Made by a program: the position numbers and the translations under genes | NCBI RefSeq assembly: GCF_014695375.1 | Contig: NZ_JACJOG010000004.1 | Span: 1-32,000, forward strand | Direction of reading: 5' to 3' | Length of the DNA: 32,000 bases | DNA from: Coleofasciculus sp. FACHB-T130 | Lineage (GTDB): Bacteria > Cyanobacteriota > Cyanobacteriia > Cyanobacteriales > FACHB-T130 | Shown here: piece after piece, positions 3,451 through 12,547 of the stretch | Layout: the number at the start of each line of letters is the position of its first letter | How positions within the stretch are numbered: the first letter of the stretch is position 1 | The notes under the pieces: model-generated | What the model was told of the DNA's origin: nothing | Seen by the model: the letters and a program-made list of their open reading frames with translations, nothing else | Database searches by the model: none

Positions 3451-4092
3451 TCAAAACTTATCAAATGGTTTGACGGCAAAATCTCCCAGTGTCACCGTGA
3501 AACTTTCCCGATTACCAGTGGCGACAAAATTAATAATTACTTCACTCGCTACGGCAACAGCCAACATTACTAAATTTCGCGCTAACGGGTAGTCGCAAAC
3601 GTCATCGTTTACTGGTGAAGGAACGCGGTAAATTTCGTTCCAGATAATTTCAGCATAATCGGAAGCTAAGCCAACGTGCAGACAAGGAATATTTGCCGCT
3701 GTGCAATAATCTTTGACAGCTTGACGGCTGATGCTGTTATCAAAAGTATCAATAACAACACTGCTACCACTAAGCAACTGGGCAGCATTTGCCGATGTTA
3801 ATTCTTTCGGACGCCCATCAACAGCAACACCCAAAGCACGGTAGAGGGTATTGGTGAGAATTTTAGCTTTGTAAGCGCCAACATCTGAGCGGTAGTAAGG
3901 CTGAGTAGAAAGGTTGCGTTCCTCAATGCGATCGCGATCGATAACCACCAGCTTCCCAAAGCCAGAACGTGCAAGATTTTCAGTAATATTCGCCCCCAGC
4001 GCCCCCGCACCGCACACCGTCACCGGGAAGTCTTTTAGCTTCGCCATCAGTGCGGATGTTCTGTGGAGTTGTTCGTGAAAGAAGATAGACAT
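3451..4092 (-). CDS. Minimal E1-like adenylyltransferase (ThiF/MoeB/HesA superfamily)
   Basis: 213 aa. It has a Rossmann nucleotide loop (VTVCGAGALGANITENLARSGFGKLVVIDRDRIE) followed by RNLSTQ, where SNLxRQ is canonical. The VVIDTFDNSISR motif (vvDctDN..R type) is present. There are no CxxC zinc pairs, no catalytic-Cys domain and no rhodanese domain. Confidence 0.85.
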   Translation of the reverse strand: MSIFFHEQLHRTSALMAKLKDFPVTVCGAGALGANITENLARSGFGKLVVIDRDRIEERNLSTQPYYRSDVGAYKAKILTNTLYRALGVAVDGRPKELTSANAAQLLSGSSVVIDTFDNSISRQAVKDYCTAANIPCLHVGLASDYAEIIWNEIYRVPSPVNDDVCDYPLARNLVMLAVAVASEVIINFVATGNRESFTVTLGDFAVKPFDKF

Positions 4093-4096
4093 TTTT

Positions 4097-4117
4097 GCTA
4101 ATGGCTAATGACTAATT
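4097..4117. repeat. Heptamer repeat (GCTAATG x2 + ACTAATT) in 24-nt spacer
   Basis: Read directly between the stop of the 322-aa gene and the ATG of the E1-like gene. Confidence 0.7.
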
Positions 4118-5085
4118 CAAAAGTCCCAGTTATCTCGCGCTTCGATAACGCCAACGAGGGATTGCAAGTCAAAATCGCGATCGCGTCCGCTTAGGCAAAT
4201 GCCAGAACTAATCACTGTCAAATCGCGCTTGTCAATGGCAGAGATGTGACGTTCACCGCTGCGGGTTGTCCACTCGACTTGCCAAAAGTCACCGCGATCG
4301 CGCACATCTTCGAGTTCGCCACCACCCATCCCCAAGGCATCGCGCACGCGGCTTTCATCACCTGACATCGCCCGCCGATCCGGATCTTGCCGTACCTCTT
4401 GGTAGTGTCTGTATGGGCGTTGTGCTTGCTGCTGGCGTCTTGTATCCCGTCGCTGCTGGCGCAAGCGTTCTTCTTCAAGTTGTTGCTGCCTTCGGCGTTG
4501 ATATTCTTCTGTCTGCTGTAACGCCAAGTCATAGACGGTACGCATCTCTGGCGTCATCCCCGCAAAGCGAAGATTTTCCGTTTCCGTCCCATTCCTCAAT
4601 TGTTCTCTGAGTTGTTCCGCCACCAGCGGATCGGCACGTCGATCCAGTTCATCAAACCACCAAGCGCTGCCATCCCAACGCGCAATTATTGGCTCAAATG
4701 CTGCACCCTCAGTAACTAAATATACCGGCACTGGCTTAGCGGCACCCAAGCGCTGCTGCATATCAGATTCGTTAACAGGGTACGCAAGCCAAGTTTGTCC
4801 TTGCAACACATAAGCCAGACGCAAGCGCAACGGCTTCAGCAGTCGCAGATATTCCGCCACCTGCGGCAAGTTTGCTTCATCCACCATTTCAGCCTTTTTC
4901 TCATTTATCGGCTGAAAAATGCCCCATCCTTCAAAGTCTTGTGGCTGCGGTTTAAAGGTATAAACCATCCCCGCTACAGAAGCGCGTACTTTCCCCCCAC
5001 CTACGCATGGTGCGAGAAACTGAGTATCGCGCAATTGCACTTCCTGTGCAGCAATTTGGTTAAGGAGGTTGCGAATATCTGTCAT
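4117..5085 (-). CDS. Hypothetical protein with a central Arg/Gln-rich charged helix; no family recognised
   Basis: 322-aa ORF that is HIP1-rich like host genes. The central segment is EEYQRRRQQQLEEERLRQQRRDTRRQQQAQRPYRHYQEVRQDPDRR. Its stop lies 24 nt upstream of the E1-like gene on the same strand. Confidence 0.7.
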   Translation of the reverse strand: MTDIRNLLNQIAAQEVQLRDTQFLAPCVGGGKVRASVAGMVYTFKPQPQDFEGWGIFQPINEKKAEMVDEANLPQVAEYLRLLKPLRLRLAYVLQGQTWLAYPVNESDMQQRLGAAKPVPVYLVTEGAAFEPIIARWDGSAWWFDELDRRADPLVAEQLREQLRNGTETENLRFAGMTPEMRTVYDLALQQTEEYQRRRQQQLEEERLRQQRRDTRRQQQAQRPYRHYQEVRQDPDRRAMSGDESRVRDALGMGGGELEDVRDRGDFWQVEWTTRSGERHISAIDKRDLTVISSGICLSGRDRDFDLQSLVGVIEARDNWDF

Positions 5086-5392: not shown

Positions 5393-6673
5393 TTACACAA
5401 ATCGGTGAGCGAATTCATAGGTAAAATCAACTCTTCCCTTGCGTAAAACGGCTGGATCTAATCTTTCAGTTGTATTGCAAGTCATCAAAACCACTAACTT
5501 TTGCTTCGTATGAATTCCCGAATCATCAATTACGCTTTGATACAATGTTCCATCCAGTAAGCTCAAAATATGCTCCGTCTTATTATTATTTTGAGCAGCT
5601 TCAGAAGCGCGATTTTTGGCTAAATTATCCGCTTCGTTGATAATTAGACAAATTCGCTCTAAGTAACTTGGCGGCACAAAATTCTCAACCGCATCGTGAT
5701 CCAGAATAAAAATCACATATCCGAGAGGCGCGAGAATTTCTTGTGCTACAGCTTGCGTCCAAGCAGTTTTCCCCGTACCCGGATCTCCGTGGACGAGAAC
5801 CGCCAACTGGCTTTGGTCGAGAATTGCCTGCTGTACCGTATCGGTAAAGCTTTGAATATCGGCGGGAAACGACCGAATTGGAAATTCGCCGTGAATTTTT
5901 CCTACACGACTTTGGTAGCCACTCAGCATCACTGCAAGATTGAAAGTTGCTTTATTGATCAGTGGCGCTAGTTCCTTCGCCATTAGGGTATAGCGTCGTC
6001 GTCCCCGATCTAAATTTTCAATTTCTAGCCAAGCTTGCTGTTGAGGCCAATAGGCATAAACCGTGTTAATAATATCGAGACGTTCCCAGTTAACAAATCG
6101 ATCTACCGGAAAATAAAAATATCGATCTAGATAATACTGGGTAATCATATCTGGACGACCCAATAATTCCAGAATTTTGAAAATCGTTATTTCTTGTAGC
6201 CGGTTGAGGACGTGTTCAATGGGAATGCTGTTACGACTGACAAATTGAATCACAGGCGAATCAACACTTAAAACGTCTTGGAAGCGATAATCTGGAGTTG
6301 GAGGATCTGGGGTAATATAATTCCAGAATTCATCAACTTCATATCGCGTACTTTCAGAAAATACATTTAAAATATTTGCCCACCAAGTATATTCGTTGCG
6401 ACCCATTGCATCAGCAATGTCGCTTGCTAAACCCAAAGTTTTCTGGCTTAGCTCTTTGGAATCGTTAAATACTAAATGCCAAAGAAATCCCCAGTCTATC
6501 TGCCGAGTTAAGGGTCGCCAACCTGCACCTAATAAGCCTTTAGCTTGCGGGTTTTTGTTGCCTGGATTGCTTTCGTCGTTTCCGAAATATCCCGATCCCA
6601 TAGTTTCAGTTCTTCTTGCTTTGTGATGGAATGATGAGAAAGTAATGCGCTTAATTTTTTTCCAAGCTGCCAT
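5393..6673 (-). CDS. AAA+ ATPase (classical AAA clade) with a large unknown N-terminal domain and no C-terminal lid
   Basis: Walker A is VLVHGDPGTGKT and Walker B is ICLIINEADNL. The sensor-1 region is LMTCNT and the Arg-finger region is LDPAVLRKGRVD. The protein ends 12 aa later. The preferred start, ATG at 6671-6673 (MAAWKK), overlaps the kptA stop as TAATG. The ORF-track start at 6718 would overlap kptA by 46 nt. Confidence 0.85.
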   Translation of the reverse strand: MAAWKKIKRITFSSFHHKARRTETMGSGYFGNDESNPGNKNPQAKGLLGAGWRPLTRQIDWGFLWHLVFNDSKELSQKTLGLASDIADAMGRNEYTWWANILNVFSESTRYEVDEFWNYITPDPPTPDYRFQDVLSVDSPVIQFVSRNSIPIEHVLNRLQEITIFKILELLGRPDMITQYYLDRYFYFPVDRFVNWERLDIINTVYAYWPQQQAWLEIENLDRGRRRYTLMAKELAPLINKATFNLAVMLSGYQSRVGKIHGEFPIRSFPADIQSFTDTVQQAILDQSQLAVLVHGDPGTGKTAWTQAVAQEILAPLGYVIFILDHDAVENFVPPSYLERICLIINEADNLAKNRASEAAQNNNKTEHILSLLDGTLYQSVIDDSGIHTKQKLVVLMTCNTTERLDPAVLRKGRVDFTYEFAHRFV

Positions 6674-7218
6674 TAAATTTGTTGCAAGTATTCGGCTGGA
6701 ACGCAATCCACCAACCAAACCCCATTTTCAGAACAGTAAAATTCATATCCTGCTTTGTGCATCGCCGCCGCATCTACAGCAAAAACCACCGGAAGACCAT
6801 GCCGTGCGCCGACAGTTTTTGCGGTGGAAATATCCTTCGATAGATGAACGTGGTGTCGCGACATTTTACACAATCCCGTACTCAAAATTGATTCGACTGT
6901 ACCCTGTCCTGTACCGTGGTATAACACATCTGGAGGAACAACGGCTTCTAGCTGCAAATCAACTTCTGTACTATGTCCTTGATTCGCTCGAATTAAGGTG
7001 CCTGTTGAGTTAAAAGAAAAGCGTTTTTTGTCATTTTTAGCAACAACTTCATCAAGTTCAGCACGAGTAAGCATAAAAGAACGATCTACACACGCTTTTA
7101 GAAGTTCATCGACAGCAACCCAGCCACCAGGTGCAAGTTCAAGACCAATGGCTTCAGGAGTATGCCGAAGATGCTTGCTGAGATATTTGCTAATTTTAAC
7201 TAAGCGAGAATTATTCAT
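6673..7218 (-). CDS. kptA: RNA 2'-phosphotransferase Tpt1/KptA
   Basis: 181 aa and collinear with E. coli KptA as I recall it: SKxLSxxLRHxPEAIG, DKKRFSF, QGHS, LYHGT, RHHVHLS, GARHG, ENGVWL. The catalytic Arg-His-Arg-Arg tetrad positions are all present. Confidence 0.9.
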   Translation of the reverse strand: MNNSRLVKISKYLSKHLRHTPEAIGLELAPGGWVAVDELLKACVDRSFMLTRAELDEVVAKNDKKRFSFNSTGTLIRANQGHSTEVDLQLEAVVPPDVLYHGTGQGTVESILSTGLCKMSRHHVHLSKDISTAKTVGARHGLPVVFAVDAAAMHKAGYEFYCSENGVWLVDCVPAEYLQQI

Positions 7219-7236
7219 TAAGTCGCTCTTTTTAGC

Positions 7237-7788
7237 TTAACAATACCAGTCATCTTCTAAATATCGCTTGACCAATCCTGCGTGGGATAAAGGACTCGAT
7301 AAATCGTCTAAATCGCAGTTTGTTTCATAATCTAATAACAATACTGTTTGGTCTGCACTTAGCTGTTTGAGTTCCGCAAGTAGGTTCTGAAGGCGGTTCT
7401 CTAGTACCCATTTATACGATGGTAAGTAGATGGCACGACGCGCTTCTACATAGGACAATAATTTGTCTCCGGTTAAGCCTGCACGATGCCCTAGAACCTT
7501 GCCGAAAGTTCGTGTCGTGCGCTTGATCCCTTTCATATTAGCGATCGCTAGTTTGCCCGGATCTACATCCGCAGACTCAAAAACTTTTAATCCTTGCCAA
7601 ATTCCTTCAACGGTATAGCTGAAGTGTCCTGGGGAAAAAGGAACGGGAATTCCACCATGCGGATAAAAAGGGCTAAAGCGAACCCAAGATTCGGTACTGC
7701 GAGAAGTTACGTCGAGAATCGTTGCTGCATCATAGCGTTTATGCAAAGTATCTAGGGATGTGCGGCGACTTTTTACAAAAAGCGGCAT
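7237..7788 (-). CDS. Hypothetical protein with a possible divergent NADAR (YbiA/DUF1768)-like motif pattern
   Basis: 183-aa ORF lying 18 nt upstream of kptA. RFSPFYPHGGIPVPFSPGHFSYTVEGIWQGLKVF resembles the NADAR core pattern (SNF.p.P..dG..f.S.EhyFQa.Kf). This is a match by eye only, not a computed alignment. Confidence 0.65.
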   Translation of the reverse strand: MPLFVKSRRTSLDTLHKRYDAATILDVTSRSTESWVRFSPFYPHGGIPVPFSPGHFSYTVEGIWQGLKVFESADVDPGKLAIANMKGIKRTTRTFGKVLGHRAGLTGDKLLSYVEARRAIYLPSYKWVLENRLQNLLAELKQLSADQTVLLLDYETNCDLDDLSSPLSHAGLVKRYLEDDWYC

Positions 7789-7910: not shown

Positions 7911-8031
7911 GTTTCTATTTTCCCAATCATAGGGGCGCACAGGCGTGTGCCCCTACTGTATTACCGTGCAATGAGTTTGATATTTGGCTAATGCAACTCA
8001 GTACCGTCTTTGCCGAGGAGGTAGCGCTCGC
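7911..8031 (+). repeat. Dispersed repeat, copy R1 (about 120 nt)
   Basis: It aligns by eye with 9252-9373 in the same orientation. Shared blocks are gtttctatttt, aatcata, gcgcaca..cgtgtgcccctac, taatgcaactcagtaccgtc and gaggaggtagcg. It contains the hairpin aggggcgcac/gtgtgcccct. Confidence 0.75.
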
Positions 8032-8252
8032 TGCAAAAGAAGCAACGCGCAGAGAACAAAGGTTTAATAAAGAAGGAAATTAACACCGAGTTTGATGATG
8101 AACTTTGTGCTGAATACGACAGCGCTCAAATGCATGGGTATGTCAAGGGGAAGTATGTTGAACGTTACAAACAAAGCACTAACTTAGTATTGCTAGCACC
8201 CAATGTTGCTAAGGCTTTTCCAAGTGATGAAGCAGTGAATAAGGCACTATGA
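8025..8252 (+). pseudogene. Start-less remnant resembling the C-terminus of a small antitoxin-like protein
   Basis: The open frame (after TAG at 8022-8024) encodes ...EFDDELCAEYDSAQMHGYVKGKYVERYKQSTNLVLLAPNVAKAFPSDEAVNKAL*. The pattern (EYDFS...G.rGKYa.RY..gTNlV.L.PDVA..FP....VN.AL) recalls a common small TA-associated protein family. There is no ATG before codon 37, and the 5' end abuts repeat R1. Confidence 0.3.
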
Positions 8253-8511
8253 CTTTTAATTAGATTTTCTAAAACTCATCTGGAAAATCTTGAGTAAAAA
8301 ATAAATTTACCTTTGATTGAACTGAATGGCGGGCATTGCTTGCCAGGTAATTTTTGGCTCAAACTGGAAGCATCGATCTAAGTCAAGTGAAGTTAATATA
8401 AAAGCTTGGGTTGGTGGGCAATGCCATTCTACTCTGTGTAGGGATGTCGGGATTTTCGCGGGCAATGCCCACCCTACAAGAGATCGCGCTAAAAATGAAG
8501 CATTGGTACTG

Positions 8512-8946
8512 ATGAGCTATATGACAAATCCAAATTCCCGACCATCAAATCATCCTTTAGCTACGCTAAATTATCTGTCTGAATCATTTGTTGATGATGC
8601 AACACCCTTGACTGAATTTGATTCAGGCGAGCCTCCAAAACCTCCGCGACGCAGACCTCCTACTGGAGCAGAGTTTGAGCCAACCTATCTGGGGAAAAGG
8701 ATCGTCAACGTGATGGAAGAGTTGGTGCAAAAAGAGGCGCTCGCACAGTTGGCGGAAATTGAAGCCACAAGCGATTGCATCCAGAAGCTGAGAGATATTG
8801 TTGCCTATGTCTTGAATAGAGTGCCCCCTCTCTATGCCACCACAAAAGAAGGTGCCGAGTATCAGCAACAACGTGCCAGAGACGAACTCCAACAACTGAT
8901 TTCCCAGCAAGTCACAGAAGCGATCGCCTACATCAATAGACCATAA
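8512..8946 (+). CDS. ComFB-domain protein (cyanobacterial cyclic-dinucleotide-receptor family type)
   Basis: NVMEELVQKEA...DIVAYVLNRVPPLYATTKEG matches the ComFB core as I recall it (vmE.lV ... Di.a.aLN.lPP.Y). I prefer the ATG at 8512, because the ORF-track extension (8326-8511) runs through palindromic repeat DNA. Confidence 0.65.
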   Translation: MSYMTNPNSRPSNHPLATLNYLSESFVDDATPLTEFDSGEPPKPPRRRPPTGAEFEPTYLGKRIVNVMEELVQKEALAQLAEIEATSDCIQKLRDIVAYVLNRVPPLYATTKEGAEYQQQRARDELQQLISQQVTEAIAYINRP

Positions 8947-9030
8947 TTTTTACCATAACGACAAGCCAAGTCCCACTTTAAATTTAATTAGTAGGTTGGA
9001 TTAAGGTAACGAAATCTAATACCCCTTCTA

Positions 9031-9062
9031 TAGTTGGGTTGAGCTTACGCTCAACCCAACTA
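9031..9062. repeat. Perfect 13-bp stem hairpin between convergent ends
   Basis: tagttgggttgag-cttacg-ctcaacccaacta, between the ComFB-like stop (8946) and the rsr-fragment stop (9077). There is no U-tract. It may be a terminator or a dispersed palindromic element. Confidence 0.6.
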
Positions 9063-9076
9063 CATTCTTTGAGCAG

Positions 9077-9250
9077 TTACTTATCATCCCGTACTGGTAG
9101 CGGTGTCTCCAGAATTTCCATTAGCAACTCTAGACGCGAAGGACGAGACAAAAGCAGGATAAGATTCGGCAGCGAGTAGTAGTCACCCGCAAAGCTGAAA
9201 GTATCTACTTGCACCTGTTTTTCCTGTAACCGACGCTCCAGCCAATCGTA
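9077..9250 (-). pseudogene. 3'-terminal fragment of an rsr (Ro60-like) paralog
   Basis: The last 57 codons plus stop match the C-terminus of the intact gene at 10849-11022. 51 of 57 aa are identical by direct count ([55 protein letters not shown]). Similarity stops abruptly at 9251, where repeat R2 begins. Confidence 0.85.
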
Positions 9251-9251
9251 G

Positions 9252-9373
9252 GTTTCTATTTTTCTAATCATAAGAGCGCACACTCGTGTGCCCCTACACC
9301 TATATACCGTGCCATAAATTTGATACTGACTAATGCAACTCAGTACCGTCCTTGCGGAGGAGGTAGCGATCGC
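9252..9373 (+). repeat. Dispersed repeat, copy R2
   Basis: See R1 (7911-8031). It directly abuts the breakpoint of the rsr fragment. Confidence 0.75.
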
Positions 9374-9618
9374 AGTTTTGAACAGAGACAAGACGCGATC
9401 GCTCTTCTGTACCAATTTTGGCTCTAGCGATCGCGCAAAGGCTTATCCACCAAGCAATTTCTCTGTAAGATAGCTGCATCTGCTCCTAGAAGATAGATTT
9501 GTCATCCGCGATGAAATAGCTAAAAACAAGGCGGCTAAACTTATACTTGAGCTGAGACTTCTGCAATCTGCAATCCTCCATCCCAAGTCAGCGTGACTCC
9601 ATTTCAAAAATAGACACT

Positions 9619-10260
9619 ATGACACTCAGTAGAGAGCAAGCGCTAGAAACCCTACAAACATATCTGGTCGCTGGAGAACGGCTCAAAGCCACATCATTCC
9701 TGGCGGATGCCTTGATTAATAACGGATTTGTTCAAGCTGCTGCCTTGTTTAACGATGCTCAAGGGAAAGAAATTGCCCCTGATGTTTGGATGTCAGCAAT
9801 AACAACAATTGAAAATACCCCCGAAGGATCTGTAATCGATAATGTTTTGTACAGTCCACATAATTGCCACTTGATGGGCGTTTATCCAAATGAAGAAGAT
9901 GACGAACCAGAGTTCACATACTCAATTGGACTTTGGTATAACTTTCAACACCCAGAAATCTTATGTCTGGGGCTTCCTAATCGCGTTTCAGGGGGACTGA
10001 TTAACGAGTACGCTCAGGAAATTGCCGAGGGGAATGCCCCACCTCTGGATACTCCTTTGGATGGCGTACTTGCCGACGGTTATCAGCTCCAATTTAAACT
10101 TTGTAGTAACAAGGCAAAAACAGAATACACCTGCTGGGCTTCTTGGTTTAACGGAGGTCTCCACTATCCTGTTATCCAGATGATTTGGCAAGACAAAGAA
10201 TACCGCTGGCCTTGGGATGAAGGGTTCCGCCCAATTCAAGCTCAACCCTTGCTAACCTGA
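9619..10260 (+). CDS. DUF4262-like protein
   Basis: 213 aa. EFTYSIGLWYNFQHPEILCLGLP and VIQMIWQDKEYRWPWDEGF fit the DUF4262 pattern as I recall it (faYTiGL...PEl.v.GL ; Q.vw.D..grfPW). Confidence 0.6.
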   Translation: MTLSREQALETLQTYLVAGERLKATSFLADALINNGFVQAAALFNDAQGKEIAPDVWMSAITTIENTPEGSVIDNVLYSPHNCHLMGVYPNEEDDEPEFTYSIGLWYNFQHPEILCLGLPNRVSGGLINEYAQEIAEGNAPPLDTPLDGVLADGYQLQFKLCSNKAKTEYTCWASWFNGGLHYPVIQMIWQDKEYRWPWDEGFRPIQAQPLLT

Positions 10261-10521
10261 GTTGTAGGGTTTGCTTGGTATAGTTGTAACTGCCCGTAGT
10301 TTTTTAGAGTAATAAGGACGAATCCTCAATTCATCTAAAAACTTTTCGGAAATAATACTATCAATCGGAAAGTAGAACGCCAAATCCCCAGATTTGAAAT
10401 TACCCTTGGCGGTAATAACCTGATACGCCATCCCTTCAAACGTGCAAATGTCTAATCTGTCTGCATTTGGGTGAGGATTGGCGCTATTAATTTTGACTAT
10501 TTCTACTTTAAAAATGCTCAT
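10252..10521 (-). CDS. RNA-ligase-type N-terminal OB module, apparently truncated (89 aa)
   Basis: MSIFKVEIVKINSANPHPNADRLDICTFEGMAYQVITAKGNFKSGDLAFYFPIDSIISE follows the N-terminal pattern of bacterial/phage ATP-dependent RNA ligases (I..I.pI.gAD.i....v.GwqvV..KG.fk.GDl.vYfeiDS.lP). No nucleotidyltransferase KxxG domain follows. The 3' end overlaps the convergent DUF4262-like gene by 9 nt. Confidence 0.5.
   Translation of the reverse strand: MSIFKVEIVKINSANPHPNADRLDICTFEGMAYQVITAKGNFKSGDLAFYFPIDSIISEKFLDELRIRPYYSKKLRAVTTIPSKPYNSG

Positions 10522-10848: not shown

Positions 10849-12547
<1,699 letters not shown>

Follow-up and report, generated by a model that had tools for sequence, protein, structure and literature searches.

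Bacterial Tpt1/KptA is an enzyme whose biochemistry is well understood and whose physiological substrate is not known (PMC6097658, PMC8120803), so a kptA gene found among close neighbours raises the question of which of them, if any, works with it. We addressed this question for a kptA gene in a 32,000-nucleotide stretch of DNA from Coleofasciculus sp. FACHB-T130 (contig NZ_JACJOG010000004.1, positions 1 to 32,000; hereafter the window). A first-pass annotation had described three minus-strand genes packed as one unit, and reading of the open reading frames confirmed all three, at 7237-7788 (183 aa), 6673-7218 (181 aa) and 5393-6718. The 18-nt gap that it had placed between the stop of the 183-aa frame and the kptA ATG was also found in the sequence. 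A promoter and terminator scan gave no difference from shuffles, and it is from gene spacing only that we infer an operon structure here. The features discussed below, all on the minus strand, are as follows.

3451..4092, minus strand: ThiF/E1-like adenylyltransferase, 213 aa (PF00899, E 6.9e-28; MccB/Uba4-like)
4117..5085, minus strand: 322-aa protein (p322), no recognisable domain (no Pfam or PDB match)
5393..5806, minus strand: AAA+ ATPase core, classical-clade (PF00004, E 2e-13; Cdc48/FtsH alignment)
5807..6601, minus strand: AAA+ N-domain, aa 1-265 (no Pfam, PDB or Foldseek match)
6602..6672, minus strand: 71-nt spacer from kptA to the AAA+ gene (homologue starts; indels and in-frame TGA in the relative L001)
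6673..7218, minus strand: KptA/Tpt1 RNA 2'-phosphotransferase, 181 aa (PF01885, E 4.7e-54; NF002014)
7219..7236, minus strand: 18-nt spacer from the DUF6939 stop to the kptA ATG (sequence read)
7237..7788, minus strand: DUF6939 protein, 183 aa (PF22075, E 2.9e-79; PF22397, E 0.016)
10252..10521, minus strand: Rnl-type RNA ligase remnant, N-terminal OB part (84% identity to the start of the L001 ligase)
10849..12417, minus strand: VWA protein, 522 aa, Ro60/TROVE-like candidate (weak VWA match; TROVE PDB matches, E 0.39)

The KptA sequence is that of a canonical NAD+-dependent RNA 2'-phosphotransferase. It gave a full-length match above cutoff to PF01885 (183.6 bits, cutoff 26; residues 5-171) and scored 280.8 bits against the NCBIfam equivalog NF002014 (cutoff 239), and its top PDB match was 7kw8, the Runella Tpt1 (E 6e-57). 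A gapless alignment placed R18-H19-R66-R121 on R16-H17-R64-R119 of Runella Tpt1 (PMC6097658), which bears out the earlier claim of a full Arg-His-Arg-Arg tetrad; the third Arg sits in KKRF, not in IRANQGHS.

The start of the AAA+ gene differs from the one first proposed. The TAATG at 6671-6675 is present and its ATG (6671-6673) is in frame with the AAA+ reading frame; however, this upstream ATG is not conserved. The homologues are 400-409 aa long and align from MGSGYF, which corresponds to the ATG at 6601 (120 of 120 among the matches listed), and in L001, the nearest relative, the sequence that precedes this ATG is broken by two indels of 1 nt each and a TGA in frame. Because the homologue starts and the L001 TGA place the AAA+ start at 6601, the spacer behind kptA is 71 nt. 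Thus, the overlapping TAATG stands as sequence, whereas a start at that position does not, and stop/start coupling of the two genes is not supported.

The ATPase core carries a Walker A (GDPGTGKT), a Walker B (N-E-A-D), a sensor-1 N and Arg fingers (R-K-G-R). Its Walker A, sensor-1 N376 and R387/R390 of the second region of homology align with Cdc48/FtsH, and its likeness to Cdc48/p97, FtsH and the proteasomal ATPases extends to the catalytic Glu and the R-x-G-R motif. In contrast to these classical-clade proteins, it is a single ATPase module of about 400 aa with a unique N-domain, no helical lid and a Walker B that reads I-I-N-E-A-D in place of hhhhDE. This substitution is family-wide: Asn takes the Asp position in 12 of 13 divergent members and Gln in one, and the Glu is retained in 12 of the 13. 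The C-terminus lies 9 residues past the GRVD arginine-finger motif, as it does in all close and most distant homologues, and therefore the absence of a lid subdomain, which the first-pass annotation had noticed, is a family trait. With a Walker B Asn and no lid, the protein may not be an active unfoldase.

The N-domain gave no Pfam, PDB-sequence or Foldseek match. The novelty claimed for it thus holds, with a length of about 265 aa and not the 290 aa first given. Longin/roadblock-like folds and Bcs1 were considered as relatives and rejected, as the Foldseek matches were not significant and came from a low-confidence AF2 model (pLDDT 58.6 overall; 70-88 at residues 100-228). The domain is restricted to the roughly 400-aa architecture (45 clusters in 1.84 billion representatives) and was not found in 72,556 plasmids or 50,697 phages. 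Alignment of 16 homologues from several cyanobacterial genera gave 82% mean column identity. This very high conservation, together with the absence of the N-domain from plasmids and phages, fits a housekeeping role.

To see which genes accompany the AAA+ protein elsewhere, we used tblastn on the flanks of its loci. Of 87 AAA+ loci, 45 had KptA within the flanking sequence retrieved, on the same strand in every case and in permuted orders: directly upstream in 36, directly downstream in 3 (gaps 3-17 nt) and 4-6.6 kb downstream in 6. Among the 50 loci flanked by 3 kb or more on each side, 27 contained it, and about 45% of AAA+ loci had no KptA within 8 kb. No other specific neighbour of the AAA+ gene was as frequent as KptA, which clustered with it in 38 of 84 loci, all same-strand, at a median gap of ~72 nt. 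Nudix (11/87), RNA ligase (7/87) and VWA (10/87) genes were further neighbours, in orders such as ligase-AAA-KptA-Nudix (L160), ligase-AAA-AAA2-...-KptA (L094) and KptA-Nudix-AAA (L003, L086 and L091), and in L102 a canonical NADAR gene (52% identity to YbiA) directly follows the AAA+ gene. Since all AAA+ loci are cyanobacterial, the linkage partly reflects shared ancestry. Together, these results identify KptA and the truncated AAA+ protein as a conserved cyanobacterial gene pair and support a functional link between them. We found no description of the pair in a non-exhaustive literature search.

Our tentative reading, to which we give a probability of roughly 45%, is that KptA and a dedicated lid-less AAA+ protein form a cyanobacterial two-gene unit set in an RNA-repair or RNA-quality-control neighbourhood. 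Through its N-domain, the AAA+ protein would recognise or remodel a substrate, either RNA or RNA-protein, and pass it on to KptA, which would take off a 2'-phosphate, or cap a 5'-phosphate, consuming NAD+. The slot beside the pair would be held by a Nudix protein in many genomes, by NADAR in one and by DUF6939 in the lineage of the window, a swap by which DUF6939 would have joined late, in this lineage only, and would stand outside the core. The conserved AAA+ partner offers an experimental handle on the substrate of bacterial Tpt1.

The wider neighbourhood was compared with known RNA-repair clusters. The 522-aa VWA protein is a recurrent upstream neighbour of the pair. Its VWA match is weak (E 0.003) and it has no Pfam TROVE match; its sole PDB sequence matches, to two TROVE proteins, are weak (E 0.39) and extend as far as the point where the VWA region begins. 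It is probably a divergent Ro60/TROVE-like protein. A probable TROVE and VWA protein together with an RNA ligase near an RNA end-processing enzyme recall the Ro60 (Rsr)/Y RNA/RtcB operons (PMC4201824). Unlike in those operons, the TROVE assignment is weak, the ligase is of the ATP-dependent Rnl type and not RtcB, KptA and the AAA+ protein replace RtcA, and an Rfam scan of the window returned no RNA family, Y RNA included. The ligase gene is intact in relatives (330 aa in L001, with PF09414 and PF21189), and the window holds only a decayed remnant of it. Ligases of this OB plus PF09414 type are not known to produce 2'-phosphate junctions. The Runella slithyformis Tpt1 gene lies in a four-gene cluster proposed to serve RNA repair, with a ligase and HD-Pnk (PMC6097658). 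The locus described here resembles that cluster in its canonical Tpt1 with an R-H-R-R tetrad and in the grouping of Tpt1 with an ATP-dependent RNA ligase, the substrate being not known in either. It differs in lacking HD-Pnk, in having as conserved partner a lid-less AAA+ protein whose N-domain is novel, in its ligase, which is of the OB plus PF09414 type and decayed in the window, and in the facultative presence of Nudix and Ro-like VWA proteins nearby.

On the other side of the pair, p322 follows the AAA+ gene in L001-L003, and a ThiF gene follows p322 in the same subset of genomes. The AAA+ protein, p322 and the ThiF/E1-like protein could form a protein or RNA adenylation or conjugation system to which KptA is accessory, a reading that we regard as most improbable. 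The three genes do keep their order and strand in the window, L001-L003, L082-L084, L091 and L102, and the ThiF protein resembles the E1-like domains of CBASS/6A-MBL Cap2 proteins. However, only 10 of 87 AAA+ loci have p322 and 5 of 87 have ThiF, and in the window the AAA+ gene and p322 lie 307 nt apart. No domain could be recognised in p322, and E2, JAB and ubiquitin-like partners were not found.

We then examined the 183-aa protein, in which a divergent NADAR core had been proposed. It belongs to DUF6939, matching PF22075 with 265 bits (cutoff 27) over residues 7-173 and all 167 model positions. Against PF22397 (NADAR-DarT1) it scored 15.2 bits, below the cutoff of 27 (E 0.016; residues 7-73 only), the same weak match being seen in 14 of 25 family members, and PF08719 gave no match at E <= 1. 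Profile comparison by hhalign gave a 62-82% probability over residues 24-70, about 45 N-terminal residues, with a score reached by 1 of 150 column shuffles. The informative comparison needed a 10-sequence NADAR profile built from phage genes, as neither YbiA alone nor a NADAR alignment of 2 sequences gave a significant hhalign result. Between the full profiles the match spans only 41 columns, and the C-terminal halves, which in NADAR hold an acidic catalytic residue and the WG region, gave 0.3% compared with 82% for the N-terminal parts. Within the matched region E61 and K68, invariant in DUF6939 and its phage homologues, are paired by hhalign with the NADAR SEHxxQxxK helix; the first-helix Glu and Lys are conserved superfamily-wide in NADAR (E88/K95 in the E. 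coli C7 NADAR) with the spacing E-x6-K (PMC11543638). The AF2 model of the protein (pLDDT 84.8) found no NADAR, and no match at all, in a Foldseek search of the PDB, and only uncharacterised giant-virus proteins in BFVD; hmmsearch of PDB sequences with the DUF6939 profile returned noise only. Thus, a local N-terminal similarity with the E-x6-K signature survives from the original proposal, and family membership is not supported by the Pfam score, the C-terminal half or Foldseek. Given an N-terminal helix that resembles the catalytic helix of NADAR, DUF6939 may plausibly act as an N-glycosidase or in ADP-ribose processing, and for a large, highly conserved family without an assigned function this match provides the first testable hypothesis.

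Synteny separates DUF6939 from the pair. DUF6939 adjoins KptA in 3 of 80 DUF6939 loci, all from close relatives, and in none of 69 AAA+ loci, which leaves no conserved three-gene unit. It is possible, if somewhat doubtful, that DUF6939 is a stand-alone enzyme that incidentally lies upstream of kptA in one lineage, with only KptA and the AAA+ protein functional together and not necessarily in RNA repair. The family comprises at least 7959 clusters, its 80 genome loci come from many phyla (54-93% identity to the query) with no conserved neighbour in 77 of them, and a rearrangement is visible upstream of DUF6939 in the window. Nevertheless, the arrangement and its short spacer (18 nt in L001, about 20 nt in L002, 70 nt in L003) persist in relatives even where protein identity has fallen to 58-88%. 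Elsewhere, moreover, ADP-ribose-processing Nudix or NADAR proteins fill positions around the pair, and the jumbo phage AD1 of Dickeya, with a DUF6939 homologue 5 kb from its KptA gene, is a second, independent co-localisation. These observations suggest that DUF6939 is a lineage-specific and possibly NADAR-like accessory. The fuller scheme, in which the AAA+ protein would be the specificity factor of bacterial Tpt1, choosing a damaged or processed RNA or RNP for KptA in a cyanobacterial ligase/Nudix/Ro-like repair pathway, and DUF6939 a diverged NADAR branch clearing the ADP-ribose product or adduct, we consider unlikely.

The first-pass annotation had gone further, with KptA as writer of ADP-ribose on 5'-phosphate ends of RNA or DNA, DUF6939 as eraser and the AAA+ protein as remodeller of the target in a new module for reversible nucleic-acid ADP-ribosylation, toxin-antitoxin action or defence. 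KptA-type enzymes do cap 5'-phosphorylated RNA in vitro (PMC8120803), and the 18-nt spacer shared by the window and L001, the E-x6-K motif, the co-localisation in phage AD1 and the true NADAR next to the pair in L102 would all suit such a scheme. The locus also resembles DarT1-NADAR pairs (PMC11543638) in placing an ART-superfamily enzyme beside a small protein with an E-x6-K helix, the weak Pfam match being to the DarT1-associated NADAR model itself. However, KptA is not DarT, the pairing with DUF6939 is not conserved and there is no sign of toxicity. NADAR targets guanine-N2-ADP-ribose and not the phosphate-linked ADP-ribose of KptA-type enzymes, and the NADARs assayed were inactive on RNA with 5'- or 3'-phosphate-linked ADP-ribose, on which PARG, macro and ARH enzymes were active (PMC11833690); the chemistry of the proposed cycle is therefore doubtful. 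The adjacency counts given above weigh against it too, and the three-gene writer/eraser/motor set is not a recurrent unit. A defence system was rejected because neither PADLOC nor plasmids or phages gave a signal for one: PADLOC-DB gave no match for DUF6939 or KptA and only generic TRIP13/IetA P-loop regions for the AAA+ protein, the N-domain is missing from plasmids and phages, and the proteins of the module are much more conserved than typical defence genes. We therefore consider the writer/eraser module quite unlikely. One part of its composition also has a precedent, as KptA has been reported in NAD+/ADP-ribose metabolism operons that also carry genes for sirtuins, macrodomains, ARHs and NADAR (PMC8120803; PMC9503650). 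Here, likewise, KptA lies beside a putative ADP-ribose hydrolase (Nudix, NADAR or the NADAR-like DUF6939), with the differences that DUF6939 is outside the recognised NADAR families and that its association is confined to one lineage. No AAA+ partner of KptA was found in accounts of these operons in a non-exhaustive literature search.

Horizontal acquisition of the three-gene block had been suggested from its AT-richness and paucity of HIP1 sites. Both deviations have the stated direction, although neither makes the block an outlier: GC is 0.427 for 5393-7788 compared with 0.466 for the window (8.8th percentile among segments of equal size), and the single HIP1 site compares with a mean of 3.3, at most one site being present in 11.6% of such segments. 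Horizontal acquisition was rejected, as GC and HIP1 are inside the window's own spread, the flanks of the block are the same in L001, and KptA with the AAA+ protein is widespread among cyanobacteria; the KptA-centred module is best read as vertically inherited, with a role in RNA repair or NAD/ADP-ribose metabolism.

The three minus-strand ORFs that the first-pass annotation treated as one coupled ADP-ribosylation module are all present in the window:

7237-7788, minus strand: DUF6939 ORF, 183 aa
6673-7218, minus strand: KptA/Tpt1 ORF, 181 aa
5393-6718, minus strand: AAA+ ORF, longest reading, 426 aa from the upstream ATG
5393-6601, minus strand: AAA+ gene as corrected, 402 aa, start ATG 6601 (MGSGYF)

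Because of the synteny seen from both the DUF6939 side and the AAA+ side, this trio is not a unit, and its core is KptA plus AAA+. A genome scan found DUF6939 relatives in 426 species-level genomes, and the best 80 loci of these were examined, covering Cyanobacteria, Chloroflexota, Actinomycetota, Planctomycetota, Myxococcota, Bacteroidota and others. KptA adjoined DUF6939 in only 3 of these 80, the three closest relatives (L001, Coleofasciculus; L002, a MAG of an uncultured bacterium; L003, Aerosakkonema), which share a block of DUF6939, KptA, a Nudix gene in L003, AAA+, a 322-aa protein and ThiF. Clustering of all neighbouring ORFs revealed no recurrent partner in the other 77. From the AAA+ side, we compiled 87 loci from a metagenome scan and contig look-ups, and DUF6939 was found near AAA+ in none of the 69 eligible loci. 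The most frequent specific neighbour was KptA, always on the same strand (38/84 loci by ORF clustering). By tblastn, KptA was detected in 45 of the 87 loci: 36 had it immediately upstream of AAA+ at gaps of 19-545 nt, 3 immediately downstream at 3-17 nt, and 6 further downstream, at 4-6.6 kb. Of the 50 loci with 3 kb or more of sequence on each side, 27 had it.

Around this core, the set of enzymes that act on ADP-ribose derivatives varies from locus to locus. Nudix occurred in 11/87 AAA+ loci, an RNA ligase of the Rnl type (PF09414 with a PHA02142 OB domain) in 7, the 522-aa VWA protein in 10 (upstream of KptA-AAA+), the 322-aa protein in 10 and ThiF in 5. The order KptA-AAA was seen in the majority of loci, KptA-Nudix-AAA in L003, L086, L091 and L136, ligase-AAA-KptA-Nudix in L160, and ligase-AAA-second AAA-...-KptA in L094. 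In an Aphanothece locus, the gene directly downstream of KptA-AAA+ (L102, 9656-10117), between AAA+ and the 322-aa gene, encodes a canonical NADAR that shares 52% identity with E. coli YbiA. The Nudix gene sits between KptA and AAA+ or just past both in L003 (7173-7625), L086, L088, L089, L091, L136 and L160. Directly after the lid-less protein, 12 loci encode another classical AAA protein, full-length at ~408 aa, that has both a lid and a DE Walker B (for example L094, 9317-10543).

The second ORF is, as predicted from its sequence, a canonical KptA/Tpt1. It matches PF01885 (E 4.7e-54) and scores 281 bits against the NCBIfam equivalog NF002014 (cutoff 239), and a gap-free alignment to its closest solved relative, Runella slithyformis Tpt1 (7kw8, E 6e-57), places the catalytic tetrad, as defined previously (PMC6097658), at R18, H19, R66 and R121. 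The claim of a complete tetrad is thus upheld.

The AAA+ protein also bears out its description as lid-less with an unrecognised N-domain. Its classical-clade AAA module is confined to the last ~135 residues (PF00004 at 292-421 of the 426-aa reading), and a domain search of that reading found nothing recognisable ahead of it. Aligned to Cdc48 and FtsH, the protein shares the Walker A (GDPGTGKT), the sensor-1 Asn and the R-K-G-R arginine pair, but differs in its Walker B (I-I-N-E-A-D), in which Asn replaces the canonical Asp, and in its C terminus. The chain ends nine residues past GRVD and therefore the helical lid is missing; both departures are kept in family members as distant as 26% identity. 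The N-domain had no match in Pfam, PDB sequences or Foldseek. Its AF2 model was weak (pLDDT 58.6; residues 100-228 at 70-88). Exhaustive searching of 1.84 billion representative proteins placed it in only 45 clusters, in which every full-length member has about 400 aa. This is a small family; homologues that have a source name come from cyanobacteria or Sericytochromatia.

The first-pass annotation correctly gave an 18-nt spacer between the DUF6939 ORF and kptA, and it also had the kptA stop overlapping the AAA+ start. The sequence read confirms a TAATG at 6671-6675 with its ATG in frame with the AAA+ ORF, but the true start is ATG 6601. All 120 homologues listed are 400-409 aa long, spanning 93-96% of the 426-aa reading, and those aligned start at MGSGYF. 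In L001, the nearest relative (protein identity 93-96%), two single-base indels relative to the window lie between the kptA stop and ATG 6601, an in-frame TGA occurs seven codons past the upstream ATG, and the sequence surrounding ATG 6601 is identical. These comparisons indicate that the overlap is not real and that the AAA+ protein is therefore 402 aa, starting 71 nt from kptA, a spacer close to the median gap in other genomes.

The 183-aa protein, proposed to carry a divergent NADAR core, belongs to Pfam DUF6939, which it matches over the full length (PF22075, E 2.9e-79). Against the DarT1-associated NADAR model PF22397 it scored below threshold (15.2 bits, cutoff 27, E 0.016), a weak match seen again in 14 of 25 family members. 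We compared a DUF6939 profile of 81 sequences with a NADAR profile of 10 (YbiA, the L102 NADAR and eight phage genes) using hhalign, which gave 61.6% probability (P 7.8e-5) over DUF6939 residues 24-68 and NADAR residues 2-42. The observed score of 34.3 was reached by 1 of 150 column-shuffled controls (mean 13.4, sd 2.9), and the probability was 75.7% once three divergent jumbo-phage DUF6939 proteins were added and 82% with the N-terminal parts alone. The aligned stretch comprises a strand, an FSxF motif, two strands and a helix with E61 and K68; these two residues are invariant in DUF6939 and correspond in the alignment to the E-x6-K pair conserved across the NADAR superfamily (PMC11543638). 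The local N-terminal similarity thus stands, but the C-terminal halves showed none (hhalign 0.3% probability), and Foldseek with a confident AF2 model (pLDDT 84.8) retrieved no NADAR structure from a PDB copy that includes 2b3w and 8bau. We therefore do not file DUF6939 as a NADAR member; we give slightly better than even odds that it derives from NADAR or shares a catalytic module with it. This similarity is the first functional lead for DUF6939.

Across the best 80 loci, from many bacterial phyla, DUF6939 proteins are 54-93% identical to the window protein, with about 60 alignment columns invariant, a conservation unusual for an uncharacterised protein. Giant-virus proteins gave structural matches (BFVD, E 3e-6), and Erwinia and Dickeya jumbo phages encode divergent members (PF22075, 28.8 bits). 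In Dickeya phage vB_DsoM_AD1 (L177; 6001-6573, 11671-12204) the DUF6939 gene precedes an annotated RNA 2'-phosphotransferase matching PF01885 (E 9e-45) by 5 kb, with both genes on one strand.

NADARs cut N-glycosidic links. A NADAR-type protein had been cast as the eraser of marks written by KptA, and in vitro, enzymes of the KptA type do attach ADP-ribose to 5'-phosphorylated RNA (PMC8120803). A 2025 study assayed NADARs on 5'-phosphate ADP-ribosylated RNA made with the Streptomyces KptA-like SCO3953; they failed to remove the mark and PARG, macrodomain and ARH enzymes succeeded (PMC11833690), which speaks against this pairing. An accessory hydrolase could instead handle the small-molecule product of Tpt1, a role that would fit better than that of an RNA-cap eraser. 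Nudix, NADAR and DUF6939 appear to replace one another beside the KptA-AAA+ pair. NAD+/ADP-ribose operons combining KptA with NADAR, macro, ARH and sirtuin genes have been described (PMC8120803; PMC9503650), so that the NADAR-KptA association itself was already known, and the pair belongs with these KptA-centred RNA repair/NAD-ADP-ribose neighbourhoods as a variant. What is new here is a conserved cyanobacterial pair of KptA and a lid-less AAA+ protein with RNA ligase, Nudix and Ro-like neighbours; no description of the pair was found in the searchable literature, whose reach stops short of key comparative surveys. Overall, the earlier observation is partly confirmed and its interpretation partly supported.

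Horizontal acquisition had been suggested by an AT-rich, HIP1-poor block. The trio block does have a GC of 0.427, below the window mean of 0.466, and one HIP1 site where the mean is 3.3, but these values fall within the window's spread (8.8th percentile of equal-sized windows for GC; at most one site in 11.6% of them), and other parts are equally AT-rich or more so. Its flanks are the same in L001, and KptA-AAA+ is spread across cyanobacteria. A defence-like role fared no better, with PADLOC returning generic P-loop similarity and nothing more and the N-domain absent from plasmid and phage collections. Together with the high conservation of AAA+ (82% mean column identity over 16 homologues from several cyanobacterial genera), these results argue for a vertically inherited housekeeping function and against a mobile defence island.

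The neighbourhood upstream of the trio contains:

10849-12417, minus strand: 522-aa VWA protein, upstream of the trio on the same strand
10252-10521: Rnl-type RNA ligase remnant, the first ~230 nt of the gene left in the window
8326-8946, plus strand: ComFB, inside a ~2.26-kb insert
9619-10260, plus strand: DUF4262, inside the insert
9078-9252: 175-nt copy of the VWA-gene 3' end, matching 10850-11024 at 86%, inside the insert
9252-9373: copies of 7911-8031, inside the insert

The only PDB sequence matches of the 522-aa protein were two TROVE-domain proteins (E 0.39), with the alignment extending to the point where the VWA domain begins, and it is probably a divergent Ro60-like protein. No Rfam family, Y RNA included, was found in the window. 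Between the VWA gene and DUF6939, relatives have an intact 330-aa RNA ligase (L001, L003); in the window ~720 nt of that gene are replaced by ~2.26 kb (8033-10521 region).

Downstream, positions 3451-5085 of the window (minus strand) encode the 322-aa protein, with no detectable domain, and then a short ThiF/E1-like adenylyltransferase. A minority of cyanobacterial loci also have these two genes after AAA+, ordered as here, and no E2, JAB or ubiquitin-like partner turned up. A repeated 46-nt element with a GC-rich hairpin (GGGGCGCACA...TGTGCCCC) occurs upstream of DUF6939 (7911-7956) and in the rearranged segment (9252-9297).
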